A stretch of 64,000 nt of DNA from Escherichia phage PC3: the sequence record ON184125. One strand, written 5' to 3'. Both the position numbers and the translations under genes were made by a program. Shown here one piece after another: positions 12,386 to 45,740 of this stretch (the stretch's first letter is position 1; each line of letters begins with the position of its first letter). The notes beneath the pieces were generated by a model, which saw only the letters and a list, made by a program, of their open reading frames with translations, did no database searches and was not told the origin of the DNA.

Positions 12386-12602
12386 CAAGAAGTACATGTA
12401 CAAGGTTCTGCTGAGCCTCGGGGTGTCACAATCTGGGCTGGCTCGTTTATTGGATTGTTCTAATGTTGTGAACTACTGGGCGAAGGGTTATCGTGTTGTC
12501 CCCCGCTCCTTCCGTCGCTTCATCCTGGTGTTACAGTTCATCAAGAAGAAAGGGCTGATGGAAGAGTTATTGCAATTTATTAAAGAAGAGGAACGCAAAT
12601 GA
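12351..12602 (+). CDS. HTH (XRE-like) DNA-binding protein
   Basis: LGVSQSGLARLLDCSNVVNYWAKG resembles a Cro/C1-type helix-turn-helix. Confidence 0.4.
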   Translation: MSLRMKELPVNDKKYMYKVLLSLGVSQSGLARLLDCSNVVNYWAKGYRVVPRSFRRFILVLQFIKKKGLMEELLQFIKEEERK

Positions 12603-13294
12603 ACTATACCCGAGCGTTGGTTTCTATCCTTGAAAGGTCTTATTCTCGCAATCTGATTGGGTATTCAGAAAGACACCATAAAGAACCCAGGAGCTTGGGA
12701 GGGACTGATACTGCGGAGAATATTGCTGTTCTAACTGCTCGGGAACATTTCATAGTTCACAAACTTTTGGCCAAGATATTCAGTATGTCTCCTGCATACG
12801 TGAAAATCTTTTCTTTGATGAGAAATATATCAAAATCACAAACTTCACGCCAATACGAAGAGTTCGCTCTCAGAAAATGGGAAAGGGTGAAGACAGCTAA
12901 CAGCACTCCAGAGTTTAAACAAAAATGCAGTGAAAGATTCAAGGGGGTGGCGTTATCCCGTGAACACAGATCGAAAATTTCCGATTCGCTGATGGGCAGA
13001 CCCAAATCAGATTCACAACGTTCCAAATTAAAACAAATCCATTCAAAGCCTTGGGAAAGTCCAAATGCGACACATACCCGCAAATATTGGGCTTTGGCAG
13101 GAATATTCTATGATTGGTGGGTAGCCGATGGTGCCAGGTTAGGCATATGTCGAAATGTAACGATGGTCAAGGAATTGGGGGTGGATCGCGCCGAAATGAC
13201 CGCCAAAAGTTGCATACAAAGATTTCAAAAAGGATGGGTGCCGTACAATGATGAGAATTGGGTTAAGTTTTTCGAGGAAATGAAAAATGCGTGA
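12599..13294 (+). CDS. HNH homing endonuclease
   Basis: HHKEPRSLGGTDTAENIAVLTAREHFIVH HNH motif; C-terminal FQKGWVPYND module shared with the two other endonuclease ORFs. Confidence 0.8.
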   Translation: MNYTRALVSILERSYSRNLIGYSERHHKEPRSLGGTDTAENIAVLTAREHFIVHKLLAKIFSMSPAYVKIFSLMRNISKSQTSRQYEEFALRKWERVKTANSTPEFKQKCSERFKGVALSREHRSKISDSLMGRPKSDSQRSKLKQIHSKPWESPNATHTRKYWALAGIFYDWWVADGARLGICRNVTMVKELGVDRAEMTAKSCIQRFQKGWVPYNDENWVKFFEEMKNA

Positions 13295-13952
13295 GTATAC
13301 CGATTGGGAAAAAATGCAGTTCGAGCGGGCGTTCAACGTTTACTGTGTCTTCATGGCGATCAAGCTGCACTTCACCACTAAGGACTTCGATTACAGCTTG
13401 TATGGACCGATGAATTACAAGTTCGAGACGTTCTTGGCGAAGGAGGCTGTGTGCAAACAGTTTGCTCGCCTTGCCCGTCGGTTCGAGTCATCACAGGGTG
13501 AAGTGGTAGAGAACTACATCATCGCCAACTTCATCAAATCACCCAAGACCTGGGTGACGACATTGCTTACACGCCAGGCTCAGGCCAATTATGATGAATA
13601 CCGTAAGCTGTACGAGAACTTCACATATAACTTCCTTGAGGAGTTCGAGCGGGAGATGATCCCTGCCATAAGGGAGCGCAACTGCACCTTCATTGAGTAC
13701 ATCAAGGGGACGGGTACAGGTCATCCACCGTTGCTGACAGACATCATCATCAAGAAGTTCCCGATTTGGTTCCTTGTCGGTCTGAACAAGATCGTTGGTT
13801 TCATTCATCTATACGATACGATTCTGCGTGATGACATCTACTGGAACTCAGAGGCGTTCTTGCTCAGGAAGACGAATGCTGTGGTTCCGGATGAGGATAC
13901 CACATATTCAAAACAGAGACTCCGTGAGCTAATACAAGCCCACGGAATCTGA
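13287..13952 (+). CDS. hypothetical protein
   Basis: 221-aa ORF. Confidence 0.5.
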   Translation: MREYTDWEKMQFERAFNVYCVFMAIKLHFTTKDFDYSLYGPMNYKFETFLAKEAVCKQFARLARRFESSQGEVVENYIIANFIKSPKTWVTTLLTRQAQANYDEYRKLYENFTYNFLEEFEREMIPAIRERNCTFIEYIKGTGTGHPPLLTDIIIKKFPIWFLVGLNKIVGFIHLYDTILRDDIYWNSEAFLLRKTNAVVPDEDTTYSKQRLRELIQAHGI

Positions 13953-15899
13953 TTACCATTCCCACAGGATGCGGGAATTATCTGTTTTGTTCTCAGGCTC
14001 AAGATATGAGCTGTTGAAGTTATTGGTCGTGTTGATCCTCTTAGAAGCATCCACATTCTGCTGTACTGGCATCACGACGCTGGCCGGAGGCGGTGAATAG
14101 CCGCCTTGTACTTGCTCAATATTAGACAGCGCCCTCCCTTGTGATGGCATGGCCCCGCCCAGAGTACCACCCCCGATAGAACCATACGCAGCTTTCAGCT
14201 GAGAGGTGCGGTCATTAGTCATATTCTTGTAATCTGAAGACGCACCAGAAGGTATTGGAGTCAGCGTTTGTGGATCGATGTTCGGTTGTGCTGGCGTCTG
14301 TGGCTGCTGGGTCTCTGTCACATCAGGAGACGGATTCTCATCAGTGTCAATCAGCATAGACTGGCGAGCCTCATCCATCTTCTGCTTCGCAGCCTGTCCA
14401 CCCAGAGCGTCAGGGATGATGCTGACGAACTTGTCAACGATATCGAACATCGCATTGGTGATTGTGTTCAGCATGTTGAAGAAAGGTTTCTTCACATTTT
14501 CGGCAAATCCCTTCTTGATTTCGTCAATAACCTTGTTGGCCACACCCATGCCCTCGTCGATCACACTACTGATACCCCCTGTGATCCAGTCTACCAGCTT
14601 CATCAACTCGGACTGTAGGTTGTCTGCTAACTTGCCAGGGATATCCGTAAGAGACGTGTCTCTCCCGATCCCTGCAAACAAGTCGTTGCTAATCCAGTCG
14701 ATAATACCATTCAGCCAACGAGCGGGAGCCTCAGTGATCATGAGGGTGTATTTGCGCAGGGTTTCACCCGCCTCGGTATCAAAGCCAAAGATCTTGGACA
14801 CCCAGTCAAATAGATCACCAAATCCACCAACCAGTTCTGATATCCCCGCCCGTACTCGGTCAACTATCGTGACAGCACCTTTACCCAGGATCTCCTTCGC
14901 ATCAATGAAGCCTTTACCGAAGTCCCAGATCATAGACAGGAGAGCCAGTGGGCCGACTTTCAGGAACTTGAACACCTTCCCAAATGGGCCCAGAAGTTTG
15001 GTGATACCTTCTCCCAGCTTGGAGAACATGCCGAGGAAAGTCCCGACAACACCACCGATGATCTTGAACGGCTTGAGCAAGAAGCCCTTCAGTGCATTCA
15101 GGCCAAGCATGGCCGCCACCGCCGCCCCGATACCGGAGGAATCGTCTTTCTGGTCATCGTCTTTGGGTATAACAGAACCCGCCTGAGGATGACCACCCGT
15201 TTCTTTGTCGGTTTCCCCACGGCGCATCTCGTCCTTCTCACGCCACTTCTGGTCTTCATCAAAGATGCGTGTCAACACTCCAACGATATGACCGCCCGTG
15301 CGCCCAATCTTGTTTTCAATGCTATACAAGCGAGTAAGGGTGTCATCGGAGTTCTTTTTCAGTTCAGCAACATCGTCACGAACCTCGATCATCACTCCGT
15401 CGATCATGTTCAAGAATGATCCCACGCGGACCAGAGACACACTCTGCTCGTCCATGCGCTTGAGGGTGTCATCATTGGCAGACTTCAGCTGGTCTGAGAT
15501 CAGGTTAAGATACTCCAGGGACGTGTCATCTGTTGGCATGCGGGTGATCTCACCGAGGCGGTCAATCTTGCCTGCGATATTCTCCAGTTCCCGATTGCCT
15601 TCGTTACCCACATCGACAGTATCCTTCATCCATACGCTGAAGTCGCGGGTGAAGATCGGAGACATGCGAGCGAATCCCATGACGATCTCATTGACTGTCG
15701 GGATACGGATTTCAAATGGCTTGGACTCGGCCTTGGTGCCCTGTTTAGTGGCAGATTCCAGCTTGGCCAGATTCTTGTTCATCCGGTCAAGCTGTCTGTT
15801 GGTTTCATTCTGAGCGCGGAGTTGTTTGCGCTGCATCATCTCCGCCTTGATCTTGTCTAGAACTTTGACAACATCATTGTTCGTTGCTTCCTGTGCCAT
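13953..15899 (-). CDS. virion structural protein, tape-measure/hub-like (coiled-coil N-terminus, Gly-rich hydrophobic core)
   Basis: 648 aa; N-terminal heptad-like region; GIGAAVAAMLGLNALKGFLLKPFKIIGGVVGTFLGMF segment typical of tape-measure or baseplate-hub proteins. Confidence 0.5.
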   Translation of the reverse strand: MAQEATNNDVVKVLDKIKAEMMQRKQLRAQNETNRQLDRMNKNLAKLESATKQGTKAESKPFEIRIPTVNEIVMGFARMSPIFTRDFSVWMKDTVDVGNEGNRELENIAGKIDRLGEITRMPTDDTSLEYLNLISDQLKSANDDTLKRMDEQSVSLVRVGSFLNMIDGVMIEVRDDVAELKKNSDDTLTRLYSIENKIGRTGGHIVGVLTRIFDEDQKWREKDEMRRGETDKETGGHPQAGSVIPKDDDQKDDSSGIGAAVAAMLGLNALKGFLLKPFKIIGGVVGTFLGMFSKLGEGITKLLGPFGKVFKFLKVGPLALLSMIWDFGKGFIDAKEILGKGAVTIVDRVRAGISELVGGFGDLFDWVSKIFGFDTEAGETLRKYTLMITEAPARWLNGIIDWISNDLFAGIGRDTSLTDIPGKLADNLQSELMKLVDWITGGISSVIDEGMGVANKVIDEIKKGFAENVKKPFFNMLNTITNAMFDIVDKFVSIIPDALGGQAAKQKMDEARQSMLIDTDENPSPDVTETQQPQTPAQPNIDPQTLTPIPSGASSDYKNMTNDRTSQLKAAYGSIGGGTLGGAMPSQGRALSNIEQVQGGYSPPPASVVMPVQQNVDASKRINTTNNFNSSYLEPENKTDNSRILWEW

Positions 15900-15910
15900 G
15901 GGTCACCTCG

Positions 15911-17299
15911 TTAAACCTTCTGTGCTTGGCCTTTCTCAATCGCCTGAGGAGTAGTGGTGGAAGCAGTTGTCTGATTGGTCTGAGGTGGAAGCACCTGCTC
16001 CAGCAAACTGTCCTTGGCAATCTCAGCGATGCACTGATAATCTTTGGTCAGGCGGGAAATCTTGTGACGCACTTTGGTCACGATATAGTGGCCTGTCGAT
16101 AGCTTACTTAACTCTGCCAGCTTTTCGTTCTTCTTAGGACGGTTGGACTGGTCTTCGACGTAGAACACCTGACCGACGTTCAGGCGGTTATCACCAACGA
16201 GCAACACGCGCATCACAGTGCTGGCAAGACTGAAGTTGATAACACGACGAGCATAATCAATCTGCTCTGCTCCATCCGGCTGGGCTTCAATGTAACGGAC
16301 GTTCTGACGATTGAATTCATCTGAGAACATCGGGAACGGATCAAGGTGAGCCGTCTCTGCAAACCACTCAGTATAGATGCGCTGTGTTGGGGTGACTGTC
16401 TTGGTCTCAAAGTCGTAGACGCGCTCGTTCACCGCCAGGACATCGCGGTAGTTTGCCATGAACTGGTCACGCGCCAGCTTCTTCTCTGCCTTGATGATCG
16501 TGCGCATAAAGCGCTCAGAGTTGAAGTTGTTATCCTGCATGAGCGGCGCGTCCTGAGGATCACGGAACAACTTGTTCTGCTGAGCTAGTTCCTGCTTCTC
16601 TTCTGCTGTCAATGACTGGCTACCCTGGTTGAACAACGTCGTCAGGCTCTTGAAGTGATAGCCATTGAAGTCTTCATAGAAAACGAATGGCATGAACAAT
16701 TCGTCATAAGAACGGCTCGCCATATAATCAATAGATCGCAGCACAGGCCAGAGCGGGGTGGCGAACCGCTCTTGAATTCCATATGACGGGTCGATGTCTT
16801 CGAACTTGGTGCGCGACTCCAGCTGATTGAAGATTGTCTTCGCCATGTCAGAATACGAACCGTCAAGACCGAGGGAGCATCGGATCATGCTGTCCTTATA
16901 GGCATCGGTGGTCACCATGTGCAACCAGAATGCTTTCTTGGACGAGCTGTTGGACTCATCAGCTACGCGCCCAACACGCGCTACGCGCAGGGAGAGAGTG
17001 GTGTATTCCGAGGCCGCCGGACTCTTGAATGACACCACAACTTCTTCACCACCCAAGATAGGCATTGTGTCAAGAATGTCCCACCCTTCTTTTATCAAGA
17101 CATTGGCTGTAAGTGATGGAGATGACTTCCCTTCAAGACCCAGATCCTGGAAGACGTTGAACTCCTCAAACAACGCCGTCAGGTCATATGGCGTTGGTGA
17201 TCCACCCTGGGGTGTATGAGGGAGGATCGCCATATACTTCAGGTCAAATGTTGTTGACGGTGTTACAATACCGTCTTGGGTCTCTCTGTTTTCGATCAT
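15911..17299 (-). CDS. hypothetical protein (probable tail/baseplate component)
   Basis: 462-aa ORF in the same minus-strand operon as the neighbouring structural-looking genes. Confidence 0.5.
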   Translation of the reverse strand: MIENRETQDGIVTPSTTFDLKYMAILPHTPQGGSPTPYDLTALFEEFNVFQDLGLEGKSSPSLTANVLIKEGWDILDTMPILGGEEVVVSFKSPAASEYTTLSLRVARVGRVADESNSSSKKAFWLHMVTTDAYKDSMIRCSLGLDGSYSDMAKTIFNQLESRTKFEDIDPSYGIQERFATPLWPVLRSIDYMASRSYDELFMPFVFYEDFNGYHFKSLTTLFNQGSQSLTAEEKQELAQQNKLFRDPQDAPLMQDNNFNSERFMRTIIKAEKKLARDQFMANYRDVLAVNERVYDFETKTVTPTQRIYTEWFAETAHLDPFPMFSDEFNRQNVRYIEAQPDGAEQIDYARRVINFSLASTVMRVLLVGDNRLNVGQVFYVEDQSNRPKKNEKLAELSKLSTGHYIVTKVRHKISRLTKDYQCIAEIAKDSLLEQVLPPQTNQTTASTTTPQAIEKGQAQKV

Positions 17300-17850
17300 T
17301 TCGCCAACTCCTGCTCCAGCTGATTGACAAACGAAGACACATAATCTGGGTCGAGTACTTGGATGTTCCGTTTGGCTTCATTCTTACTGATTGCATCATC
17401 ATGGTATGAAACTGCCGTCAGACCATAGTTAGCAATTATGGACGGCTCATCTAGGTCTAGGTTATATGCAAATTTGATAGCACGGGCGTCGGTCACATTG
17501 TTGAACTGGTCGACATAATAGGCTGTATCCCACATACCATCGATGCCGTAATCTGCAGTCAGTTCTTCAATAATACGGCGTTCCGGTTTCGGCCAGTCCT
17601 TATTGATGTCCATGATGCCGTTTATCAGACAAGGTATCCAAAACAACTCGAAGGATCCGTAAACGCGTTCTGCGAAAGACCTTGGGGTTTCCCCCTCTTG
17701 GATCGTATACGGCAGGAGAAGCCCTTCGATGTCCTTAATTTTCTGTAAGATCATCACCCGGCGCGTTAAGTTCTGTAACAACACCTGATCATTCTCTTGG
17801 ACATCTTGCAATTGATGCCAAACAAGTGGAAACTTCTCAAAATATTTCAT
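17296..17850 (-). CDS. hypothetical protein
   Basis: 184-aa ORF with 4-nt overlap to the downstream gene. Confidence 0.5.
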   Translation of the reverse strand: MKYFEKFPLVWHQLQDVQENDQVLLQNLTRRVMILQKIKDIEGLLLPYTIQEGETPRSFAERVYGSFELFWIPCLINGIMDINKDWPKPERRIIEELTADYGIDGMWDTAYYVDQFNNVTDARAIKFAYNLDLDEPSIIANYGLTAVSYHDDAISKNEAKRNIQVLDPDYVSSFVNQLEQELAK

Positions 17851-17861
17851 GGCATCCTCTC

Positions 17862-18830: not shown

Positions 18831-18880
18831 GGTCTCAGCCCTTAAATAGATAGAGTGTTATGGCTATTTAGGACTAGATT

Positions 18881-26840: not shown

Positions 26841-28739
26841 TTATTCATCCTCAGTTTCAAATAGGCAAACATCGCTAAACCAGGTTTTGCGGTAATCGGC
26901 GGCCTCGTCACCGAAGCCATTCTTCAGTGACTGTTGATAGCCATCGTCCAGCGTGACCGTCGTAGTATACGCATCCAGGTTGTTTAGAATACGTTTGAAG
27001 TCTTCAGTGCTGTTACCACCCAGACCTTTCAGATATTTCTTCTTCGTGATCTTCTTGGCATCAGGCGTCTTCAGGAACTCCTCATACTCTGCGTTGTTCA
27101 TGAACTCATGCATCACCTTGCCACACCACACACGCATGTAAGGGGTGCGCAGGAGCTTCAGCCTGCCCTGACGGACGTACTCCGGCCAGTAGGTGCAATA
27201 CAGGGTGATCAACAACCCACGGATGTGAATGCCGTCATCGTCCGCATCGGTAGCCACAACAGTCTGTGGGTAACGGGTGATGTCAAGGGGCTGGCCTGGT
27301 ACTGCACCGCCGTGGATCGTACACAGGTTCTTGAACTCTTCATTGTTCATCACCTTTGAGCGCGGGGCGTTCAGGCAGTTGATGAACTTACCACGAAGCG
27401 GGAACAACCCGATCTTCTTGGTGTCGCGGGCGTTCAGGATAGGATTGGAGGCACTATCACCCTCTGTCAGCAACAGGGAGCATCCGCTGCGGTCACCACG
27501 GGCGGTCGCCGGGTAATACTTCTCAATCTCACGATAATCCCGCTTGCTGATGTCCTTCTTGGCCTTTTCAAACTCAGCATCATCCTGCTCATTGCGCAGG
27601 GAAGCCAGTTCTTTGCTCAGACCAGCCGTAACGAACTCAAGCGCCTTGCGGATCAGTTTATCGCTGGGCTTGTACGACGTACCGAACTGGCTTACAGGAG
27701 TGGTCATGCGCTCCTTGGTCTGGCTGTCAAAGCGCGGGTTGTTGATGTCGGCGGCGATGAACAAGGACATGTGGTTCTTGATCATTGCTGGCTTCAGTTC
27801 GGTCTTGAACTTCTTCACCAGCTGGGGACGAATCGCTGCCACGATCTGGTCAGCAACATAATCAACGTGAGGACCACCGATGTGGGTGGCAATAGAGTTC
27901 ACGTATGATGCGTGCATGAACGTACCGGATGAAGGGGCTACAGCAACAGACCAATCCCCGGTTTCGTCAACAGCCGAACCAGCATGGAAGTAATCAACGA
28001 AGTGGCCAAAGCGGTCAATCCGGATTTGCTTCCCATTGAGAACAATCTTCAGGCGCGGGTTACACGCAGCCACTTCAAACGCGCGGCGATAGATCATCAG
28101 CAGGTTGTTCTGGTCAAGTCCTTTGACGCCCAGACGAGCATAGTCAGGGATCCAGGCGATGGATGTGCCGGGACTGTTCACGTTGCTGATGACTGGGTTA
28201 GATTTCTTGCTCATGTTGTCTTCAAACGTCTGAGTATAAGACTTCTTGCCGTCATTAGTCGTGACGCGGAACCATTTGGAGAACACGTTGACGAGGGACG
28301 CCCCTTCGCCATTCTGACCACCGGACTTCTGGTTGTTGTACTCTTCGTCTTCGTCGTTGAAGTTCGATCCTGCAAACAATTCTGAAAATAACATTTCTGG
28401 CAACCACATACCAGATTCATGCTTGACCACAGGGATACCCCCGTTGTCAGCAACGATGATTTGACCGTTCATCGGGGAAACTGTGACGGTGATTTCCGTC
28501 AGGGATTTACCCTCAGGGGTCTTGCTGTGGTCAACACAGTTGGTGATGATTTCATCAAACTGTTTGATAAGAGCGGGGTTATATTCAAAATTGTCTTTAA
28601 ACACAACTTTGTCTTTGCTGAGATCATATACCCAAGCCATCCCGACAGAAGAACGGATACTCCCTAGATGGCGCTCTGGGCGAAGGAGTATATGCTCGAT
28701 GTGTGAGAGCTTTTTGTATTTTCTGTTTACATCAACCAT
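26841..28739 (-). CDS. DNA topoisomerase II large subunit (gp39/gp60-type, GyrB-like ATPase plus Toprim)
   Basis: GHKL ATPase N-terminus and Toprim LLLTEGDSA motif; uninterrupted 632 aa. Confidence 0.9.
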   Translation of the reverse strand: MVDVNRKYKKLSHIEHILLRPERHLGSIRSSVGMAWVYDLSKDKVVFKDNFEYNPALIKQFDEIITNCVDHSKTPEGKSLTEITVTVSPMNGQIIVADNGGIPVVKHESGMWLPEMLFSELFAGSNFNDEDEEYNNQKSGGQNGEGASLVNVFSKWFRVTTNDGKKSYTQTFEDNMSKKSNPVISNVNSPGTSIAWIPDYARLGVKGLDQNNLLMIYRRAFEVAACNPRLKIVLNGKQIRIDRFGHFVDYFHAGSAVDETGDWSVAVAPSSGTFMHASYVNSIATHIGGPHVDYVADQIVAAIRPQLVKKFKTELKPAMIKNHMSLFIAADINNPRFDSQTKERMTTPVSQFGTSYKPSDKLIRKALEFVTAGLSKELASLRNEQDDAEFEKAKKDISKRDYREIEKYYPATARGDRSGCSLLLTEGDSASNPILNARDTKKIGLFPLRGKFINCLNAPRSKVMNNEEFKNLCTIHGGAVPGQPLDITRYPQTVVATDADDDGIHIRGLLITLYCTYWPEYVRQGRLKLLRTPYMRVWCGKVMHEFMNNAEYEEFLKTPDAKKITKKKYLKGLGGNSTEDFKRILNNLDAYTTTVTLDDGYQQSLKNGFGDEAADYRKTWFSDVCLFETEDE

Positions 28740-29562
28740 TATTATCTCCGTAAAATTTCAACCAGGCGGGATCTTCTTTTGGTATCCAACCTTTCTGAAA
28801 TTTAGATATACAAGTTTGAGCTGTGGCCTTAGAACAAACAGAGCTTAACCCGGTTTCTTTCAACATTAAACAATAACGGTTCTTCACTTTGTCTTCACCG
28901 TTACTATACCACCATTCAAAGAATTCACCAGCCAAGAGCCATTGTCGGGATTTACCCGTCTTTACGACAGTCGGGTGTTCCCAAGGTTGTATGTTATTCA
29001 TGGGATTGTTCTGGCGCCACATAGCAGAATACCTCTCCCTTTCTTCTGGTCGCCTCATCCGTTCGGTGACTGATTTGGTAAGATTGGCTTTGTGTGCTTC
29101 GGAGTGTGGTATCCCTTTCCTGGATTTTGACAACCTGCGCCTTGATTCGTCATTCCAAGTGTAACCTCTCAAACTATCCGCACGTTTCTTCTGTACTTCT
29201 GGGTTCAATGAGTTTTTCTTGGATTGCTTACGACAACGTTCCTTTTGTTCATCAGATGACATCACTTCTTTCATTCTGGTGGAATTATTTCTCCTCAATT
29301 CCCCAAACTCTTTGTTGTTCCTAGACATGTTGTTCATCCCAGTCCATGCCTTCCTGATACCGGGGTTGAGTGGTTTTGTTCTCCAAAGTAAGTGATGTAC
29401 GACATAATGTTCTTCTGGTGTCAACCATACAAGATTAGAGAAGTGGTTAGTGCCACCCAAGCACACAGGGATTATATGGTGGCGTTCTTGATAAACGCCA
29501 TCCATTTTACCTCTCTGTATTGCTCTCTGTATGAGAGCGTCTAAGATGATTTCGTATTTCAT
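28732..29562 (-). CDS. HNH homing endonuclease
   Basis: HHIIPVCLGGTNHFSNLVWLTPEEHYVVHH motif; C-terminal FQKGWIPKED module. Confidence 0.8.
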   Translation of the reverse strand: MKYEIILDALIQRAIQRGKMDGVYQERHHIIPVCLGGTNHFSNLVWLTPEEHYVVHHLLWRTKPLNPGIRKAWTGMNNMSRNNKEFGELRRNNSTRMKEVMSSDEQKERCRKQSKKNSLNPEVQKKRADSLRGYTWNDESRRRLSKSRKGIPHSEAHKANLTKSVTERMRRPEERERYSAMWRQNNPMNNIQPWEHPTVVKTGKSRQWLLAGEFFEWWYSNGEDKVKNRYCLMLKETGLSSVCSKATAQTCISKFQKGWIPKEDPAWLKFYGDNNG

Positions 29563-30140
29563 AAGCCAAATTTGCTACGCCACTTTTCAACCTTGTGTTC
29601 AATAGCGTGCTCCACTTTAATGCGAGTGGCCATCAAAGAGGATCCACGGATCGCCCCTTCCCCACACCCCATGCGCGCAACATGCTTGATTAGGTCATTG
29701 ACGAGTTGATCCAATCTGTCTTGACTGCGATAAGGCTGGTTACACAATCGGATAATCCGGCCATGATAATGATGGATAAGATTCAGATGCTTTTGAGGAT
29801 CACGATCAATCAGACGGAACCAGTCTTCTTCCAACAGATTAGAAGAAATATCGTTCACTATCGCCATGTGGTTGATGACAGAGTCGATCATTTCGGCCTT
29901 GTTCATAGAGCCGCGCATTTGGACGTCGTCATAATCCATGACGTACAGAAGGTCAATAGCAGAGATAATGACATCAGCAACTTCGCCATTCAACGGCTCG
30001 GAAGATACTATGCCATGAAACACATCAGACAGTTCACAGATCTCTTCACCTAGTTTGTTCAGAACAAACACAGGCGAACGGTCTGGGGTATGAGCAGTGC
30101 AGTCATAAGAAGTGTCGACGATAGTGTGTAGAAATTTCAT
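29559..30140 (-). CDS. MazG-like all-alpha NTP pyrophosphatase (candidate)
   Basis: LGEEICELSD and EVADVIISAIDL resemble the MazG EExxE/ExxD pattern. Confidence 0.4.
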   Translation of the reverse strand: MKFLHTIVDTSYDCTAHTPDRSPVFVLNKLGEEICELSDVFHGIVSSEPLNGEVADVIISAIDLLYVMDYDDVQMRGSMNKAEMIDSVINHMAIVNDISSNLLEEDWFRLIDRDPQKHLNLIHHYHGRIIRLCNQPYRSQDRLDQLVNDLIKHVARMGCGEGAIRGSSLMATRIKVEHAIEHKVEKWRSKFGL

Positions 30141-39273: not shown

Positions 39274-39292
39274 TAATACCCTATCCCCTTTT
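39256..39292 (-). terminator. long hairpin (AAAAAGGGGATAG...CTATCCCCTTTT) with CAATAATACC loop
   Basis: 13-bp stem flanked by A/T runs on both sides; sits between two minus-strand genes. Confidence 0.5.
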
Positions 39293-39304
39293 ATTGAAGA
39301 ACGA

Positions 39305-39718: not shown

Positions 39719-39722
39719 GACA

Positions 39723-40292: not shown

Positions 40293-40310
40293 TCTTACTT
40301 CCTCTTTTGA

Positions 40311-41426
40311 TTAAAAATTAAACGGATAACGACGACGGCCACCATTGTACTCCATTCGCTGCAATATGAAAATTGCGGTGAATGGTAAGCAGCCCAGCAG
40401 AACAACAACCACAACTTCCCAGGTCTTGAGTTCCCGCCACTTCAGGTACTCCATTTCCTTCATCTCAACGCGGTTGTAGCCTTTGGTGATGTTAGCGACA
40501 ACATCAGCCATGACACCGACGCCCATGTCGTGGCCTGTGAGAGTCATGCCATTGCGAGAGTGTAGTTCACGGTTATGCATACCATCAGCGAACGAAGTGC
40601 TCTTACCCCAGTTGATCTTCAGATCTTTGCTGATGTCGGTCACGACGATAACGTCGTTCTTTTTACCACCATCCCAAGCATAGACCAAGCCCTGGAAGTA
40701 TTCAACTGGCTGACCGGATGTCACAACCCAGACGATATTGACCTGACGTGAAGCACCTAATGTTTTCAGAGTATTGTTCAGATAGTCGTTCCAGTATGTG
40801 GTCGGTAACGCCAGGCCGGACACATTCAACACACGAGTGACACGATAGTAGTCATAGACCTCAGGGTACTTGGGAATCTTGTCTTTGAAGCGTTCAGCAA
40901 ACTGCTGGTCTGAGCGGGAGAACAGAGAGTCTTTGTTACCCAGTACATAGTTCATGTAGGAATGCTCACGGGCTGCGGGTTCGCCGATCTGAACCTGCGC
41001 CCAGCGCGGGGGCTGACCAAGACCGCGACGATCAATGCGGTCAATCGTCAGATTACCGACAGTCGTCAACACATCCCAGTCCACGTCATATGAATGCTCA
41101 TAACATGTACTGCAATGACGCGTTTTTGTACAAGATCGGTTATTTCCTGAACCTGTACAAGATGTGGTGTAGTAGCAGTTGCATTCATATGAATGCTCAC
41201 AGCTCACCTTATTCCGCTCCTTTGCAGTGACGTACCCGTTCAGGATCTCAACATCCCCTGAACTGCCAAGGGAGAACGCAGCATAAGCCCCCGCCTGAAT
41301 CAGACAGGATAGCACCACTACAATCGCGGTCGCTATCAGAGTCTCTTTCGGCTCATGGGTCTTGCGGTGGTAGATCACAAACAAGATAGCCAGTACCAAT
41401 GGCACACCAAACAGGAGGTAGATCAT
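40311..41426 (-). CDS. membrane protein with Cys-rich extracytoplasmic domain
   Basis: N- and C-terminal TM helices; CEHSYECNCYYTTSCTG...CSTC cluster. Confidence 0.45.
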   Translation of the reverse strand: MIYLLFGVPLVLAILFVIYHRKTHEPKETLIATAIVVVLSCLIQAGAYAAFSLGSSGDVEILNGYVTAKERNKVSCEHSYECNCYYTTSCTGSGNNRSCTKTRHCSTCYEHSYDVDWDVLTTVGNLTIDRIDRRGLGQPPRWAQVQIGEPAAREHSYMNYVLGNKDSLFSRSDQQFAERFKDKIPKYPEVYDYYRVTRVLNVSGLALPTTYWNDYLNNTLKTLGASRQVNIVWVVTSGQPVEYFQGLVYAWDGGKKNDVIVVTDISKDLKINWGKSTSFADGMHNRELHSRNGMTLTGHDMGVGVMADVVANITKGYNRVEMKEMEYLKWRELKTWEVVVVVLLGCLPFTAIFILQRMEYNGGRRRYPFNF

Positions 41427-41662
41427 TTGGATTCACCGACGAGCTGCGCCTTGGTCATCCCAAGGAGTTGATCTTTATGCTCAGGATTGGCACCGTTCTT
41501 TAACAACAAATCCCAACGCTCTTCATGGTACTGTGGGTCCAGTGCTTCATCAAATGTGATGTGGTGGCGGAACATAATAGTTGCCACTGAATGGACACAG
41601 TGAGCGATTGCGCGCTTCATTGTTCGAGTATTCTTGTTCATCTTGTACACCCTCCGACACAA
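41423..41662 (-). CDS. hypothetical protein
   Basis: 79-aa ORF. Confidence 0.35.
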   Translation of the reverse strand: MCRRVYKMNKNTRTMKRAIAHCVHSVATIMFRHHITFDEALDPQYHEERWDLLLKNGANPEHKDQLLGMTKAQLVGESK

Positions 41663-41862
41663 ATGATATTCAGTTCGCCACGGACAAACCCATTCTTACC
41701 GGAGGATTTGTTGCCGTTCAGCATTTTCCACAGCCCATCAGCGTCGCCCAATTCCGGCATCTGATACTGTACCACAGGGGTCTTGCGATCTTCTTCGAGC
41801 ATTACAGACACCATAGATTCGATATCCAGGGAGTCCATATCTTCAATTCGTTGCATTGCCAT
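41638..41862 (-). CDS. hypothetical protein
   Basis: 74-aa ORF. Confidence 0.35.
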   Translation of the reverse strand: MAMQRIEDMDSLDIESMVSVMLEEDRKTPVVQYQMPELGDADGLWKMLNGNKSSGKNGFVRGELNIICVGGCTR

Positions 41863-41874
41863 AGTGAAATCCTC

Positions 41875-42072
41875 TTAATAGAGTTTGGTGTATGTTTGTT
41901 TGACACGCATAAAAGTGCTCATATATTTTTGTGATCCCACCAAATGAGCAAACGCAATTTCTGCCGAACTCTTGTCCTTGAACTCCAGAACGGAAGTGTC
42001 TACTGCAATAGATTGATTCTTCCCGTCGAAGCCAACGGTTGTCACTAAGATCTTATAATCTTGGGTTTCCAT
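41875..42072 (-). CDS. hypothetical protein
   Basis: 65-aa ORF with RBS-like AAGGA upstream. Confidence 0.35.
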   Translation of the reverse strand: METQDYKILVTTVGFDGKNQSIAVDTSVLEFKDKSSAEIAFAHLVGSQKYMSTFMRVKQTYTKLY

Positions 42073-42093
42073 GATGTATATCCTTGCAAAAGA

Positions 42094-42128
42094 AAGGGGA
42101 ACGGGCTAATAATAACCCATTCCCCTTT
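42094..42128 (-). terminator. hairpin (AGGGGAACGGG...CCCATTCCCCT) with TAATAATAA loop plus T-run
   Basis: Downstream of small ORF 42154-42321; followed on the minus strand by TTTCTTTT. Confidence 0.45.
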
Positions 42129-42153
42129 ATTGAAGGAAGCAACCCCAGTCAGA

Positions 42154-42321
42154 TTACTTTTTCTTCAGCTCGTCCAGTTTGGCTTCGATCTGGTCCAGAA
42201 TCTCTTTGCCTTTCTGAACAATCACTTCACCATCTTGCGCGTGTTTACGGAAGACCAGAGCACCAGCGATGAAGCCGACAACCGCGCCAGGAAGCGCATA
42301 AACCAGCAGATCTTGTAACAT
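42154..42321 (-). CDS. small protein (55 aa), below the ORF-track size cut-off
   Basis: GAGG RBS 8 nt upstream of ATG; hydrophobic N-terminal half, charged C-terminus. Confidence 0.35.
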   Translation of the reverse strand: MLQDLLVYALPGAVVGFIAGALVFRKHAQDGEVIVQKGKEILDQIEAKLDELKKK

Positions 42322-42357
42322 GATAATATCCTCGCTTTATAGGCGAGGATATTTATA

Positions 42358-43584
42358 TCAGCGTTTCAAGAGTGTCATGAGGTTGACGCTGCTGGACTTC
42401 GGTTTATCAATCTTCGGTTTACCCAATTCTCGATACACCTGGTCAGGCTCCCAGCGCGTACCCTTTTGCAGGTGCCAGATATGCAGAGGAACACCAGTCT
42501 CAAAGAACACAGGCATCTTCCACTTCTGGACGCCTGGAACGTGCCCTGCAGGAGCCTTTTCGCACAACAGGGTATCTGGCAGCCAGAGCGAACGGGCTTC
42601 CCAGAGCGCTGCGCAGGAGTATTCAGGCCAGACGCGTTCCATGTAGTCTATCTCATCCCAGGTACGCTCTGCGTCCCACCCGATGTAACGAGTATTCTTC
42701 AGTCGGAAGAATTTCTTCAGCCAACAAGCACCGGAGGTTTCAAAGTTCAGGCGGTTGATGAACGTCAGGTGCCCGAACTCAGCCACACAATCCTGGAACG
42801 CCTGCTCAAGGTCGGCCTCAAGGATGTCACACTCTTCATCCGTGATAGGGCAACTGTTGATCTTTTTCTTCCCGTGTTTAGTCACCCAATCGTCACGGTT
42901 GGACAAGAACGCCGCGCCATTACGGTTGGACTCGCTTCCATCACGATCACGCAACATGAAGCCAGGGACGTCAATGGTGTATTCGTTCCCGAAGACCATG
43001 TTCAGGGCTTCCAGGAAGTTCCAGGCGCTCAGGCGACCGAAGTATTTCCAGGACATCGCCGTGTCCCACAGCTGGGTGAATTGTTCTGTCTTATCGATGC
43101 ACACCAACATCCCACGGAAAGCGTCATATTGAGTACGGCCAGCCAGCCAGTCAATATAGGACTGAACACACGGAATCATCTTGGACTTGCGGTAGCGACA
43201 GTCGGTATCGAATCGCATGCGATCAAAGTTCAGATTATACCAATCAGAGAAGCGCTGCATCTCTTCCTTAGACTGAGGCGGCACAGGGAACTCACTGTAG
43301 ATCGTCCACGGCCCGACGGCGTTATAGCAACAACCCCACAGGAATGCCATCCAGATCTTGCGCTCGACTTTCTGTTCGAGGCTGATGCCTTCAGTGACTT
43401 CGATCGCATAGTCCATCAGACGCATCTGCTGGTTGTGCTCTTCTGTGTAGGACAGCGCCTCCACCCAAGCCTTGAGCAAGTACATGCGATTCTCAGGCTT
43501 GCGATAATCAACAGCCAGGTCAATCGGGTACTTCCATTCAGCCGGAGGCGTATAGCCCGTCGGCATTTTAGATAAATGATGCAT
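42358..43584 (-). CDS. hypothetical protein (408 aa)
   Basis: Long ORF with no motif recognisable by eye; candidate accessory enzyme. Confidence 0.55.
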   Translation of the reverse strand: MHHLSKMPTGYTPPAEWKYPIDLAVDYRKPENRMYLLKAWVEALSYTEEHNQQMRLMDYAIEVTEGISLEQKVERKIWMAFLWGCCYNAVGPWTIYSEFPVPPQSKEEMQRFSDWYNLNFDRMRFDTDCRYRKSKMIPCVQSYIDWLAGRTQYDAFRGMLVCIDKTEQFTQLWDTAMSWKYFGRLSAWNFLEALNMVFGNEYTIDVPGFMLRDRDGSESNRNGAAFLSNRDDWVTKHGKKKINSCPITDEECDILEADLEQAFQDCVAEFGHLTFINRLNFETSGACWLKKFFRLKNTRYIGWDAERTWDEIDYMERVWPEYSCAALWEARSLWLPDTLLCEKAPAGHVPGVQKWKMPVFFETGVPLHIWHLQKGTRWEPDQVYRELGKPKIDKPKSSSVNLMTLLKR

Positions 43585-43945
43585 CTTTCGCTTCCTCTTC
43601 AGGAGCCACAGCTTCAGGCTCAGGAGCCAGCTGAATATCTTCCGGCTTCACGAACCCCATCGGACGTTCCCACATATCGATAAAACGACGGTCAGCGGTC
43701 ACGAACCACAGACGGGCTGCAGTGTGGGTCTTACCCGAGATGAACATCTGAGCGTTCGTCTGGGTACGGAACGGAGCAGCCTGCAACCACTTTCCGAAGT
43801 CTTTGGACGACGGATTGGCATTCAGCTGGAACTGAGGGATGACGCAGTTCTTTTCAGGAATCAGGCGCACGGCAGTAATGTGCTTGGCGTTTCCGGTGTA
43901 GTCGATCGCAACAGCCACAGCATCGCGAGGGATTTGAATTTTCAT
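43568..43945 (-). CDS. hypothetical protein
   Basis: Start moved to internal Met that is ATGA-coupled to the upstream small gene. Confidence 0.4.
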   Translation of the reverse strand: MKIQIPRDAVAVAIDYTGNAKHITAVRLIPEKNCVIPQFQLNANPSSKDFGKWLQAAPFRTQTNAQMFISGKTHTAARLWFVTADRRFIDMWERPMGFVKPEDIQLAPEPEAVAPEEEAKDASFI

Positions 43946-44145
43946 TTTGGTTCCTTGAATATTTTGTAACCAGCAGCGCCGATAGACATCACCGCGCCAA
44001 TACAGTACATCACAGTCACGTTCAACTTCTCTGAGGTTGTTAAGTCCAGAGGGGTGAAATGATAGGCTAGGGCAGTACACATTGAAACGGCTGCCATAAC
44101 CAGACCAATGAACAACAGATAATTAGACAACCGTTTCATGATCAC
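43942..44145 (-). CDS. small membrane protein
   Basis: 67-aa ORF, two hydrophobic helices. Confidence 0.35.
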   Translation of the reverse strand: MIMKRLSNYLLFIGLVMAAVSMCTALAYHFTPLDLTTSEKLNVTVMYCIGAVMSIGAAGYKIFKEPK

Positions 44146-45740
44146 CCCTTCTTCATCAGGTCAAGGAGAGAGCGCGACGCTGCCTTCGTTGCTTCTGGCT
44201 GGGCGCTCGCCTTGGTTTTAGTTTTGGATGCCTTCTGCGGCTTCTCAGGCACTCTGTGCGCCAAAGGGTTGCTACCCTTAATCTTGCGCAACATTGGTGT
44301 GGTGTCGCAATATTTTTGAAACTCTTCTTTGGACAACCCTCTCAATCCAACAAAATCTATAATAAAACTACCAATAAAGTGGAGAGGGGCATCGAAGAAT
44401 TTCAGTATATTCCAACCAACTGCCTTTACACCATTTTCATTCGCTGCCTTTGCAATGAACAACTCATTCTGAGAGTCTGGTTCAAGTTCGTATCCGATGG
44501 CAGCGTACTCACTCATGATCTTGACGTGATCCTTGGTGTATTGTTCATTTCTTCCCCAGCCAGTGTCCTTCGCCGCCTTACCAGAACGACCGATGATACG
44601 TTTGTCGTAATCTTCCCGCGCTTGGTAAATAAAGGAGATGAATGCCATGTTGTTGAACCCCAAGTCCTGGTGTACGAACTCGGGACGCCATCGATGGCTC
44701 TGCATCATAGGTTCCCCCTCCAAGATGATAGTTGCATCTTTGAACTTTATTTTGAGATACTTCAACAACGAATTGGCCATCTCAGAAGACTTGAGAGTGG
44801 AGTGTATGAAATCCATAGAAGTCCATGATGCTAGACCTGATTTGTTGGACACTGTATACTTGCCGATGAACACCAGATTGATTTCCTTGAACCAAAACCC
44901 AACCTGGATCATCTTCTTGTCGAATTCGTATTCTATGAGTTCTGGCTCATATTTGGTTCTCAACCACTCAAGGAATTGAACGACACGAGTCCCCTTTCCC
45001 GTTCCACTTGTCCCGCGAATAACGACAATACCCGGCGTCACGCTAGAATTTATCATAGTCATAAAACGTTTGTCCTCTTTGGGAATCCAACCATCTTTAA
45101 ACATGGCGATCATATTACGAAAGACGCTCTCATCGCCCTTTAGATTACGATACTCTGTGTCCAGTAGTTTAGAATACCACAATCCGATAGATTTGTAACC
45201 ACATCCTCGTTTTGGTATACAGGTAGGATTCACAGTACCACCGTTATTCACCCATCTATCATAGATCCTACGGGCGTCCTTCCAAACCCACCAATAACCA
45301 TTTGAAACCATGAATGGGTAGGGAGAATTACCCCTGTTCTCCTTTATTGATTTTATTACACGCTCCCGGTATTCTGGATCATCCCAAGGATTTATACCAG
45401 ATTTGTATTTCTTGCCAGTCCTGGCCAACGCCGCCTTAAATTGGTTTGGTATGATAGAATTGTCTCCTCCCAATTTCAGGTTCAGACATAATGGGTCCAA
45501 CAGTAACTCTTCCGTAACAATAATAGACTCCAGGTCGGATGCCTCCAACCTGGTTTCAAACTTTTCTATTATCGTCTTTAAGAATTCAGAAGCGGGGTGA
45601 GATTCCAACAACCTTTTGATGATAACACCAGAACCCATATAGGGGTCTTGTTCGGGGGCGCATGAACAAGACCGAATCCCGACGTAGAATCTCCCAGTTG
45701 GGACATGGGTTATCCTATATGTGTAATGGTAGCGAGCCAT
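44142..45740 (-). CDS. GIY-YIG homing-endonuclease domain fused in frame to a P-loop kinase domain
   Basis: N-terminus YTYRITHVPTGRFYVGIRS...YMGSGVII (GIY-YIG); FKDGWIPKEDKRF module at about aa 215; C-terminal half has Walker A GTSGTGKGT, IGKYTVSNKSG and ILEG, paralogous to the 1228-1887 kinase. Confidence 0.7.
   Translation of the reverse strand: MARYHYTYRITHVPTGRFYVGIRSCSCAPEQDPYMGSGVIIKRLLESHPASEFLKTIIEKFETRLEASDLESIIVTEELLLDPLCLNLKLGGDNSIIPNQFKAALARTGKKYKSGINPWDDPEYRERVIKSIKENRGNSPYPFMVSNGYWWVWKDARRIYDRWVNNGGTVNPTCIPKRGCGYKSIGLWYSKLLDTEYRNLKGDESVFRNMIAMFKDGWIPKEDKRFMTMINSSVTPGIVVIRGTSGTGKGTRVVQFLEWLRTKYEPELIEYEFDKKMIQVGFWFKEINLVFIGKYTVSNKSGLASWTSMDFIHSTLKSSEMANSLLKYLKIKFKDATIILEGEPMMQSHRWRPEFVHQDLGFNNMAFISFIYQAREDYDKRIIGRSGKAAKDTGWGRNEQYTKDHVKIMSEYAAIGYELEPDSQNELFIAKAANENGVKAVGWNILKFFDAPLHFIGSFIIDFVGLRGLSKEEFQKYCDTTPMLRKIKGSNPLAHRVPEKPQKASKTKTKASAQPEATKAASRSLLDLMKKG

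Follow-up and report, generated by a model that had tools for sequence, protein, structure and literature searches.

A homologous helical module on HNH and GIY-YIG homing endonucleases of an Escherichia phage, and its fusion to a DNA kinase

How does one protein segment come to be attached to unrelated nucleases in a single phage genome? The question is raised by a 64,000 nt stretch of Escherichia phage PC3 (ON184125), referred to here as the window, which matches the final 64 kb of Escherichia phage PH4 (Ackermannviridae, LIMEstone1-related) at 100% identity. Three genes are concerned: ORF1 (12599-13294, + strand), ORF2 (28732-29562, - strand) and ORF3 (44142-45740, - strand). The original prediction described them as free-standing homing endonuclease genes, two HNH and one GIY-YIG, in which a near-identical C-terminal targeting module has been shuffled between nuclease domains within the genome. 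The three reading frames and the peptides quoted for them are present at these positions.

The shared helical module

The module is an all-helical region of about 85-100 aa. It occupies about aa 140-231 of ORF1 (13016-13291, +), about aa 173-276 of ORF2 (28735-29046, -) and about aa 119-230 of ORF3 (core 151-229; 45051-45386, -). In a search with a profile of 54 HNH-linked modules, from which all window sequences were left out, ORF3 is matched at E 1.9e-11. The converse profile, built from 54 GIY-YIG-linked modules without the fused proteins, finds ORF1 at E 4.3e-22 and ORF2 at E 1.1e-20. The best unrelated six-frame ORF in the window has an E value of at least 0.36. Several PHROG profiles match the three proteins alike; phrog_25551, for example, matches ORF1 (E 1.3e-14), ORF2 and ORF3 (E 5.1e-5). 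The module is a true homologous domain on unrelated nuclease folds.

It is not near-identical. Pairwise identity among the three modules is 26-40%, and in a three-way alignment the ORF2 copy is 40% identical to that of ORF1 and 30% to that of ORF3. What looked near-identical is only the best conserved signature of the domain, the 13-16 aa motif F-x-x-G-W-x-P-x-x-D-x-x-W; in the module alignment (n = 76 sequences) F85, G88, W89, P91, D94 and W97 show little or no variation. The module is also not all that is shared, since ORF1 and ORF2 are paralogues whose homology extends from end to end (BLASTP E 2e-38).

The AlphaFold2 model of the ORF2 module has six helices (pLDDT 95.5, pTM 0.80). Its core looks like a tri-helical helix-turn-helix; the likeness of the model to DNA binders of this type is weak, and every one of its top low-rmsd analogues is a tri-helical domain that binds DNA. 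In the three ORFs and the family proteins searched, the module is covered by no Pfam or NCBIfam model, and neither Foldseek nor sequence comparison detected similarity to solved structures. In BFVD, the structural matches are phage homing endonucleases only, of both classes and including the SegG type. Fold and position suggest that the module probably binds DNA.

Modular DNA-binding regions are common to homing endonuclease families, as the NUMOD motifs show (Sitbon & Pietrokovski 2003, cited in PMC2330249 and PMC1564403), and domain shuffling is documented among phage homing endonuclease genes (PMC10448857). That nuclease families share binding modules is already established. Like the NUMOD motifs, which are short modules C-terminal to the nuclease in GIY-YIG, HNH and LAGLIDADG enzymes, the module follows the nuclease domain, and sub-threshold NUMOD3-like motifs lie just upstream of it in ORF1 and ORF2. 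However, it is not NUMOD1, 2, 3 or 4, and it exceeds a NUMOD motif in size, with about 90 aa and six helices.

HNH genes beside replication genes

The PH4 record gives ORF1 (231 aa; phrog_655 'homing endonuclease', E 9.6e-53) as a 'homing endonuclease', and ORF2 (276 aa) matches the same PHROG at E 2.7e-66. The HNH region spans aa 1-66 of ORF1 (12599-12796, +), with the H-N-H motif at about aa 23-45, and aa 1-64 of ORF2 (29371-29562, -). These assignments rest on PHROG and family profiles (aa 2-61 of ORF1, E 1.5e-23; ORF2, E 2.8e-27), as the Pfam scores lie below gathering thresholds: HNH at aa 23-45 of ORF1 (16.8 bits; cut-off 21.4), and HNH_5 and HNH at aa 24-47 of ORF2.

Both genes are precisely absent from related phages. 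The insertion point of ORF1 coincides exactly with the gp59 helicase-loader start codon; phage ZQ1 has 3 nt in place of window 12602-13298, with flanks 98.7-99.0% identical, and divergence in gp59 is limited to the first 100 nt, beside ORF1. ORF2 overlaps both of its neighbours, a MazG-like gene on one side and the gene for the topoisomerase II large subunit on the other. The topoisomerase gene (26841-28739, -) had been placed before the HNH gene; ORF2 is in fact transcriptionally upstream, overlapping its start by 8 nt. Phage LHE287 has 83 nt in place of window 28722-29565. In ZQ1 all that is left of ORF2 is its module, which forms an intact ORF of 89 aa.

The 5' end of the topoisomerase gene by ORF2 (28300-28721, -) is a divergent tract. 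Between PH4 and LHE287, which lacks the endonuclease gene, nucleotide identity here is 77-91%, against 99-100% in the other 100-nt bins on both sides (the other flanks are about 99% identical overall); the encoded proteins share 127/150 residues in the tract and 200/200 beyond it. Divergence is limited to the first ~430 bp of the gene, and the tract is a putative co-conversion or target-immunity tract. Presence/absence polymorphism together with the divergent downstream tract supports the view that ORF1 and ORF2 behave as free-standing homing endonuclease genes, and to this extent that part of the prediction stands.

Dickeya phage LIMEstone1 carries an annotated endonuclease gene, F-LimI, at the ORF2 site upstream of topoisomerase II, where the region is 91.7% identical in nucleotides; its F-LimXI is 93.6% identical to ORF3 in protein. 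From position and similarity we infer that these are homologues at the same sites. The table in PMC3296691 places F-LimI under GIY-YIG, whereas its homologue ORF2 carries an HNH motif.

The fused gene ORF3

ORF3 encodes 532 aa (phrog_15209 over aa 35-532) and joins a GIY-YIG nuclease, the module and a 5-hmdU DNA kinase in one frame; its AlphaFold2 model has three folded domains. The SegB-like nuclease domain (aa 1-95; 45456-45740, -) matches phrog_314 (E 1.4e-23 over aa 1-227). It retains the class-conserved residues Y8, Y19, G21, E71 and N87, and the beta-beta-alpha-beta-alpha core is folded in the model. The module follows, with helices at 156-165, 182-192, 205-215 and 224-232 in the full-length model and an insertion of ~25 aa relative to HNH-linked copies, common only to fused or GIY-YIG-linked copies. 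The kinase domain (aa 236-531; 44145-45035, -) has the P-loop GTSGTGKGT and matches PF18747 (HMUD2) at E 1.3e-156, with 520.8 bits against a cut-off of 25; its C-terminal tail is disordered. Because the module is internal and the kinase domain comes next in frame, ORF3 is neither free-standing nor C-terminally tagged. The PH4 GenBank CDS starts at 45638 and thus leaves out the GIY motif.

The kinase belongs to a thymine-hypermodification cluster, alongside ADDT amino-acid:DNA transferase, DUF7254 and NT5C genes. Its counterpart in Kuttervirus CBA120 is orf243, which we take, by the shared gene number, to be the same gene as ViI gp243; the latter phosphorylates 5-hmdU in DNA in vitro (PMC8989533). 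ORF3 aa 236-531 is in the same family and gene cluster, but is 45-50% identical to the unfused kinases and carries a 235-aa endonuclease-derived N-terminal extension. PMC8989533 reports 5-HMUDK fusions whose partners are PLP enzymes and aGPT-Pplase rather than nucleases. The shared module is ordinary for such genes; in-frame fusion to a hypermodification kinase is the unexpected part, and no earlier description of a nuclease-module-kinase fusion was found in the literature searched. In PMC3296691 (2012), F-LimXI is listed among the free-standing GIY-YIG endonucleases, as SegB-like, and its kinase half goes unmentioned in that listing.

Better known GIY-YIG enzymes resemble ORF3 in part. I-TevI, from the T4 td intron, has a tripartite DNA-binding domain and is laid out as a nuclease, a flexible linker and, at the C-terminus, a helical DNA-binding element whose last part is a helix-turn-helix (PMC2330249). 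The ORF3 model has the same order of nuclease, low-confidence linker and helical domain; however, neither sequence comparison nor Foldseek gives a match to a solved structure, no zinc finger was detected, none of ORF1-3 is intron-encoded, and ORF3 runs on into the kinase. The ORF3 nuclease matches the T4-type Seg endonucleases (34% over aa 4-131 by tblastn), of which SegB confers preferential inheritance on flanking markers (PMC2330249). The module model also has a structural match in a SegG-type protein of a T4-like Shigella phage (TM 0.73, E 5e-3), a link consisting of the predicted-structure match alone, at 20% identity; tblastn from the module consensus gave no match in T4. We know of no Seg protein fused to a neighbouring enzyme.

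The same open frame is found in six phages and the fused form in 28 phage records, and fused clusters make up 7/64 kinase clusters in a collection of 5.8 billion proteins; all unfused kinases are at most 50.5% identical. The site exists in three states: without an endonuclease (CBA120), with a separate SegD-like endonuclease (AV101 and RPN242), and fused (PH4, LIMEstone1, KpS110 and CAU_YEP3). Metagenomic contigs with the fused gene have the same hypermodification gene neighbourhood. Between PH4 and the family member P0006, nuclease plus module (64.7% identity) and kinase (63.4%) have diverged in step. Values of dN/dS lie at 0.06-0.18 in the nuclease and 0.04-0.07 in the kinase, and in the module at 0.11-0.37 apart from one nearly identical pair; all three parts are under purifying selection. 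In a neighbour-joining tree of kinase domains the fused proteins form two deep clades which are not clearly sisters, and the tree fits one ancient fusion or two independent fusions alike. Among close phages the cassette has been swapped whole, and the exchanged stretch breaks off sharply at the ORF3 start codon on one side and at aa ~491 on the other; pSal-SNUABM-02 and CAU_YEP3 have nucleotide-identical kinase parts joined to nuclease parts at saturated divergence.

Exchange in the module family and competing explanations

The module was found in 149 cluster representatives (E <= 1e-3) in a library of 1.84 billion proteins. Its carriers are almost exclusively homing nucleases: among 151 family members the partner is HNH in 58 and GIY-YIG in 57. 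Pfam assigns NUMOD3 to 47 of 148 module proteins, HNH to 29, and GIY-YIG families to 18, 14 and 10; the module is the extreme C-terminus in 130/148. Nearest-neighbour modules share a nuclease class in 74/93 cases, against 46 +/- 6 with shuffled labels, in a test on representatives clustered at 50% identity, which is blind to very recent exchanges elsewhere in the family. The remaining 19/93 pairs cross classes, and this distribution supports several switches of nuclease class across the family. The modules nearest to that of ORF3 are GIY-YIG-linked (P0006, 62%; P0016, 54%), with P0072 and P0050 also among the best matches; those nearest to ORF1 and ORF2 are HNH-linked and come from other phages. 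Taken with the 74/93 same-class neighbours, this indicates that the exchanges are old and family-wide; since each module's nearest relatives are joined to the same nuclease type in other phages, there is no sign of shuffling inside this genome.

Recent shuffling within the genome would explain why all three genes have the module and why FxxGW(I/V)Px(E/N)D looks alike in them; cross-class pairs do occur, and recombination between endonuclease DNA-binding regions is described in other phages (PMC10448857). It is nevertheless very improbable, given the 30% identity between the ORF3 and ORF2 modules (24% and 23% in BLASTP of ORF3 against ORF2 and ORF1), the insertion in ORF3 and the class-matched best relatives. 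The fused gene with its module is also found in Dickeya, Klebsiella and Yersinia phages and in metagenomic contigs, so the fusion predates PH4. What survives of the shuffling proposal is one module on unrelated folds, moved several times over the history of the family. Coincidence of composition or of a short motif, with no common ancestry, could be read into the weakest comparisons, as BLASTP gives E 2e-4 for ORF3 against ORF2 but 0.022 against ORF1, and a profile of ORF1 and ORF2 finds ORF3 at E 0.012 only. It is refuted by the cross-class profiles, and the PHROG matches, the confident helical fold and the BFVD matches in both classes leave it practically no weight.

The module might instead contact proteins (replisome or host factors) or serve autoregulation, with the NUMOD3-like linker recognising DNA. 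This is improbable, as the module sits where I-TevI-type enzymes have their DNA-binding domain (PMC2330249), occurs almost only on homing nucleases and has DNA-binding domains as its low-rmsd analogues. A somewhat better case, though still an unlikely one, can be made that the endonuclease part of ORF3 has been domesticated as an N-terminal domain of the kinase (a DNA tether or modification sensor), or that the kinase is made separately from M227 or M229. An extension that binds DNA would suit a kinase whose substrate is polymeric DNA (PMC8989533), and the age of the fusion, with purifying selection along its whole length, points the same way. A mere tether, however, could do without the GIY-YIG residues and the low nuclease dN/dS, and the whole-cassette swaps and the pSal-SNUABM-02/CAU_YEP3 mosaics are as endonuclease-driven exchange predicts. 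As for a separate kinase, GAGG lies 9-17 nt upstream of M227/M229 and M229 is invariant in 7/7 fused clusters, so that either codon could be an internal start; but M229 aligns with a conserved hydrophobic position in the W-x-x-F motif of the last module helix, and its invariance does not need a start-codon role.

The likely explanation is that ORF1 and ORF2 are F-LimI-type HNH homing genes, that exchange of the module is old, and that ORF3 is an endonuclease fused to a kinase. A close parallel is with the T5orf172 and IPA-HNH genes of phage ICP1, in which binding domains are exchanged, which adjoin essential genes, and which have sharp conserved/divergent boundaries like those at ORF2/topoisomerase and around ORF3. 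They belong to other nuclease and binding-domain families, and fusion to a host enzyme of the ORF3 kind is not among the features described for them (PMC10448857).

ORF1 and ORF2 would each act from a position immediately upstream of, overlapping and apparently translationally coupled to a replication gene. In both proteins an N-terminal HNH domain is followed by a basic linker with the NUMOD3-like motifs and by the C-terminal module. On the model of I-TevI-type enzymes, the most likely role of module and linker is to anchor the protein to an extended DNA target within the endonuclease-less allele of the downstream gene; the nuclease would cut nearby, and repair would copy the endonuclease gene together with the adjoining part of that gene. 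ORF3 may have arisen when a GIY-YIG endonuclease gene with the module was inserted between the DUF7254 and 5-hmdU DNA kinase genes and lost its stop codon, so that the endonuclease came to extend the kinase in frame at its N-terminus. The fusion would since have been inherited and exchanged as a single unit, with all three parts under selection. The presence of the module about equally often on GIY-YIG nucleases elsewhere would then reflect old, occasional exchange across the family, not inside this genome.

A helical module in HNH and GIY-YIG endonucleases

The three homing endonuclease ORFs of the original prediction lie where it placed them, and each contains the peptide by which they were linked. 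ORF1 (12599-13294, +; 231 aa) and ORF2 (28732-29562, -; 276 aa) are HNH genes; ORF3 (44142-45740, -; 532 aa) is the GIY-YIG ORF. A 3-kb stretch around ORF3 is 100% identical to Escherichia phage PH4 (ON184126; Ackermannviridae, Aglimvirinae) and 91-98% identical to E. coli, Salmonella, Enterobacter, Yersinia and Dickeya phages, LIMEstone1 among them. The window corresponds to positions 91896-155895 of the PH4 GenBank record, in which all three ORFs are already annotated as homing endonucleases. A 2012 description names the LIMEstone1 homologues F-LimI (upstream of topoisomerase II) and F-LimXI ('SegB-like, free-standing') (PMC3296691).

ORF1 and ORF2 align over their full length (BLASTP E 2e-38, 30% identity); they are evidently paralogues and not different proteins with a common tail. 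BLASTP alignment of ORF3 with ORF2 and ORF1 is limited to 75-113 residues (E 2e-4 and 0.022, respectively). A profile of ORF1 and ORF2 ranks ORF3 top of the 744 six-frame ORFs of the window, yet at an E-value of just 0.012. Judged within the window, the similarity is at most suggestive.

When the 106-aa module was the sole query, a word-indexed homologue search returned a single fragment, and an exhaustive profile search was used instead. The three-segment profile matched 149 of 1.84 billion representative proteins at E <= 1e-3. One of these, P0002 (1614 aa, 15 matched stretches, unrelated Pfam matches), was set aside as an apparent repetitive artefact, leaving 148 family members. The segment ends 15 or fewer residues from the C-terminus in 130 of them. 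In six members (P0007, P0011, P0012, P0053, P0135 and P0142) the module is internal or falls in at least two matched stretches, and the C-terminal extensions have no Pfam match; tandem modules or additional fusions could explain them. Among the 148 members, Pfam detects NUMOD3 in 47, HNH in 29 (as well as a few HNH_3, HNH_4 and HNH_5), GIY-YIG in 18, SegE_GIY-YIG in 14, LEM-3_GIY-YIG in 10 and HMUD2 in 2. No Pfam family covers the segment itself in these members, and no NCBIfam family does so either. In ORF1 and ORF2, Pfam NUMOD models have no match inside the module; sub-threshold NUMOD3 matches lie upstream of it (ORF1 aa 119-133, ORF2 aa 133-150). Iterative profiles assign 58 of 151 members to the HNH class and 57 to the GIY-YIG class, with 36 other or short.

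The two nuclease classes were compared through their modules. A profile of 54 HNH-linked modules, with window sequences excluded, matches ORF3 at E 1.9e-11. The reciprocal profile of 54 GIY-YIG-linked modules, with fused proteins excluded, matches ORF1 at 4.3e-22 and ORF2 at 1.1e-20; the next-best window ORF in these searches is at 0.36 or worse. These values therefore rule out compositional coincidence as the source of the shared segment, an alternative raised with the original prediction. On sequence grounds the module is a real domain. Its most conserved part is the motif from which it was first recognised, in which F85, G88, W89, P91, D94 and W97 are invariant or nearly so across 76 sequences. 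The ORFs, their peptides and their homology are thus real, and the prediction went too far in its details: the segments were called near-identical, and the aligned modules are 30-40% identical.

AlphaFold2 predicts an all-helical fold of six helices for the ORF2 module (76-sequence alignment; pLDDT 95.5, pTM 0.80). Nothing was found for this module in the PDB, either by sequence search or by Foldseek, and its resemblance to solved tri-helical helix-turn-helix domains (homeodomain-, Myb- or transposase-HTH-like) is weak. In a viral structure library the module matches phage homing endonucleases only, and these belong to both nuclease classes; among them are a GIY-YIG enzyme of KpS110, an enzyme of SegG type from a T4-like Shigella phage and several fragments of 94-124 aa. 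A tblastn search with the module consensus, too insensitive for a survey of phages, did not reach T4; T4 SegG itself is at most a possible carrier of the module. Since the model is helical and the library matches are confined to homing endonucleases, the best inference is a putative DNA-binding, HTH-like role. The position of the module, C-terminal after nuclease and linker, matches the plan of I-TevI-type enzymes, which consist of a nuclease, a linker and a C-terminal DNA-binding region (PMC2330249).

Module sharing between homing endonuclease families is established (PMC1564403), as is domain shuffling among phage endonuclease genes (PMC10448857). Here, the nearest neighbour is on the same nuclease class for 74 of the 93 classified modules; shuffled labels give 46 +/- 6 same-class neighbours, and never more than 67 in 2000 permutations. 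The remaining 19 modules have cross-class nearest neighbours, at 32-47% identity. This points to a module that mostly co-evolves with its nuclease and changes partner now and then. The nearest relatives of the ORF3 module are GIY-YIG-linked (P0006, 62%; P0016, 54%), and those of the ORF1 and ORF2 modules are HNH-linked copies in other phages. An insertion of roughly 25 aa in the ORF3 module is otherwise present only in its GIY-YIG-linked relatives. Shuffling of one module between nuclease domains within this genome, as originally proposed, does not agree with the preponderance of same-class neighbours or with the class-matched relatives of all three modules in other phages. The interpretation is right for the protein family and wrong for this genome and for ORF3.

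ORF1 and ORF2 as free-standing elements

Pfam HNH and HNH_5 match ORF1 (aa 23-45) and ORF2 (aa 24-47) where the H-N-H stretch is expected, but do not reach the gathering cut-offs (16.8 and 15.7 bits vs 21.4; 18.1 vs 27.5). The phrog_655 'homing endonuclease' family matches ORF1 at 9.6e-53 and ORF2 at 2.7e-66. Each gene is its own ORF with short overlaps with its neighbours, and neither is in an intron or intein. ORF1 is flanked by a small ORF and gp59, and ORF2 by a MazG-like gene and topoisomerase II. The original prediction placed an HNH gene immediately downstream of the topoisomerase II large-subunit gene; in the direction of transcription ORF2 is upstream, and its last 8 nt overlap the topoisomerase start.

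Comparison of insertion sites with relatives lacking the HNH genes agrees with mobility of both genes: ORF1 is absent from phage ZQ1 and ORF2 from phage LHE287, and the adjacent genes are divergent. At the ORF1 site, window 12602-13298 is represented by just 3 nt in ZQ1, and the start codon of the gp59 helicase loader stands where the endonuclease ATG would be. In LHE287, 83 nt take the place of ORF2 and its junctions (28722-29565). In 100-nt bins, PH4 and LHE287 are 97-100% identical outside the ~430 bp of the topoisomerase gene adjoining ORF2, where identity is 77-91%; the topoisomerase proteins are identical at 127 of 150 residues in the divergent part and at 200 of 200 beyond it. Divergence is milder in the first 100 nt of gp59 (94% vs 98-100%). 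A free-standing homing endonuclease with its putative target in the downstream gene would be expected to leave one-sided divergence of this kind.

ZQ1 has a 556-bp deletion (window 29002-29557) that removes the HNH and linker parts of ORF2; positions 1333-1602 of its sequence (L007) correspond to window 28732-29001. The two alignment blocks overlap by 5 nt, read as ATGAA microhomology. The remnant is an intact, unannotated module-only ORF of 89 aa. It has kept its overlaps with the MazG-like stop and the topoisomerase start. Short stand-alone module ORFs, which make up 18 of the 148 family representatives, could be products of decay that are retained for translational coupling, or could have their own function. 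Just upstream of the ORF1 region, window 11900-12115 (ORF 11908-12123, +) is unalignable between PH4 and the ~99%-identical ZQ1 and A221.

The nuclease-module-kinase ORF

ORF3 had been described as free-standing with a C-terminal module. Its frame in fact runs on for another 300 aa as a PF18747 kinase (HMUD2, 5-hmdU DNA kinase 2). The match spans aa 236-531 (E 1.3e-156; 520.8 bits vs a cut-off of 25) and model positions 2-298 of 298, and the P-loop GTSGTGKGT is present. The same open frame, from nuclease to kinase, is found in six phages. In the nuclease part, Y8, Y19, G21, E71 and N87 are at least 90% conserved in an alignment of 51 sequences (ORF3, its fused homologues and GIY-YIG-class family members). 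This part matches phrog_314 at E 1.4e-23 and is modelled as a beta-beta-alpha-beta-alpha core (pLDDT 71-92). ORF3 itself draws no match from the Pfam GIY-YIG models at E <= 1, but its relatives P0016 and P0006 are matched by SegE_GIY-YIG. The full-length protein was modelled with AlphaFold2 (mean pLDDT 70) from 33 sequences, only 8 of which underlie the endonuclease half; the model has a folded GIY-YIG core at residues 1-88, a low-confidence linker at 89-148 and the module at 150-232; the kinase begins five residues after the module, and the C-terminal tail is disordered. The PH4 CDS starts 34 codons late (45638), so that the GIY motif is lost from the annotation. Public records of ORF3 are inconsistent, and call it 'homing endonuclease' in some cases and 'P-loop nucleotide kinase2' in others. 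From its predicted domains it is both: a Seg-like GIY-YIG nuclease, the module and a ViI-gp243-type kinase in one frame.

The fused form occurs in 28 phage records; unfused kinases are all at most 50.5% identical to it. In a 5.8-billion-protein collection, 7 of 64 kinase clusters are fused (38-99% identity), and two of these are on metagenomic contigs with the same gene neighbourhood (L012, L013). Between PH4 and P0006 the two parts have diverged in step, with 64.7% identity in nuclease plus module and 63.4% in the kinase. Pairwise dN/dS among the six phages is 0.06-0.18 for the nuclease, 0.04-0.07 for the kinase and 0.11-0.37 for the module, bar one nearly identical pair (PH4 vs pSal-SNUABM-02; 1.29 at dS 0.019). 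In a rough neighbour-joining tree of kinase domains (midpoint-rooted, no support values, 16 unfused sequences omitted by a strict P-loop pattern), fused kinases form two deep clades outside the main unfused clade. The fusion may have arisen once or twice; the tree fits either.

A separately initiated kinase is possible, because Met229 is invariant in all fused clusters and is preceded by GAGG 9-17 nt upstream. Met229 also aligns with a conserved hydrophobic residue of the module's last helix, and this position accounts equally well for its conservation; as an ancestral kinase start it was downgraded on that ground. The fusion itself may be a persistence strategy, domestication or mere tolerated read-through. 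A functional chimera, in which a still-active homing endonuclease is welded in frame to the kinase that the phage requires to hypermodify thymidine and spreads with it as one cassette, or in which the module loads the kinase onto DNA, is a tentative and rather doubtful reading.

The hypermodification locus and its alleles

The ORF3 kinase lies in a predicted thymidine-hypermodification cluster. The other members are an ADDT amino-acid:DNA transferase (42358-43584, -; PF18724, E 7e-60), recorded as 'hypothetical protein' in PH4, DUF7254 (45740-46045, -) and the NT5C-like deoxyribonucleotidase NT5C (46055-46834, -). The counterpart of the kinase at this locus in CBA120 is orf243, which is taken to correspond to ViI gp243. 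The latter phosphorylates 5-hmdU in DNA in vitro (PMC8989533); for the fused form this activity is a predicted one. Further along, a group I intron (48882-49269, -; Rfam RF00028, full model, 58.6 bits, E 6e-14) splits the DNA polymerase gene between CDS pieces 47235-48863 and 49266 onwards. At 388 nt, the match is too short to hold an endonuclease ORF as well; in the polymerase gene of LIMEstone1, by contrast, I-LimII and I-LimIII are reported to be intron-encoded.

The site between DUF7254 and the kinase exists in three states among relatives. CBA120 has nothing there, RPN242 and AV101 have a separate SegD-like GIY-YIG endonuclease that lacks the module, and PH4, LIMEstone1, pSal-SNUABM-02, KpS110 and CAU_YEP3 have a single ORF of 529-532 aa. 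PMBT18 has an equivalent fused ORF annotated from a later start. Dickeya phage Coodle has the unfused allele too, yet its kinase is annotated 'F-LimXI'. Between PH4 and RPN242 the flanks are 99.7% and 97.5% identical and window 44268-45737 is unalignable; the exchange has sharp edges, one at the ORF3 start codon and the other near aa 491 (about 40 codons before the stop). Elsewhere in the compared regions RPN242 and AV101 share ~99% identity with PH4, whereas their kinases at this site are only 50% identical. In pSal-SNUABM-02 and CAU_YEP3 the kinase parts are nucleotide-identical, and the nuclease parts attached to them have diverged to synonymous saturation. Both this pattern and the unalignable stretch suggest that cassettes are still being exchanged at the ORF3 locus.

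Module sharing as such is known biology, here extended to a domain absent from catalogues. As stated, the finding changes little; it is another example of the known 'beads on a string' build of homing endonucleases. The module family is well defined: it has 149 representatives and a confidently predicted fold, and HNH and GIY-YIG enzymes use it about equally often. A Pfam or NCBIfam model of it would better annotate phage homing endonucleases and the short remnants now called 'hypothetical protein'. The GIY-YIG/5-hmdU-kinase fusion is the sole element for which no description was found in the literature searched, which is weak evidence, as most subscription-journal papers lay outside its scope. 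For work on thymidine hypermodification in Limestonevirus and PH4-like phages, it means that the gp243-type kinase carries a predicted nuclease. The ORF3 locus, with three states of a single site in phages that otherwise share ~99% identity across the compared regions, is a clean natural test system for endonuclease-driven allele replacement in DNA-modification genes. If ORF3 is a functional chimera, deletion of the selfish element would cost the kinase its translation start, and endonuclease and kinase allele would spread jointly. In either variant, this would be a route to persistence or domestication of homing endonucleases distinct from introns and inteins, and it would tie their dynamics to the diversification of DNA-hypermodification genes.
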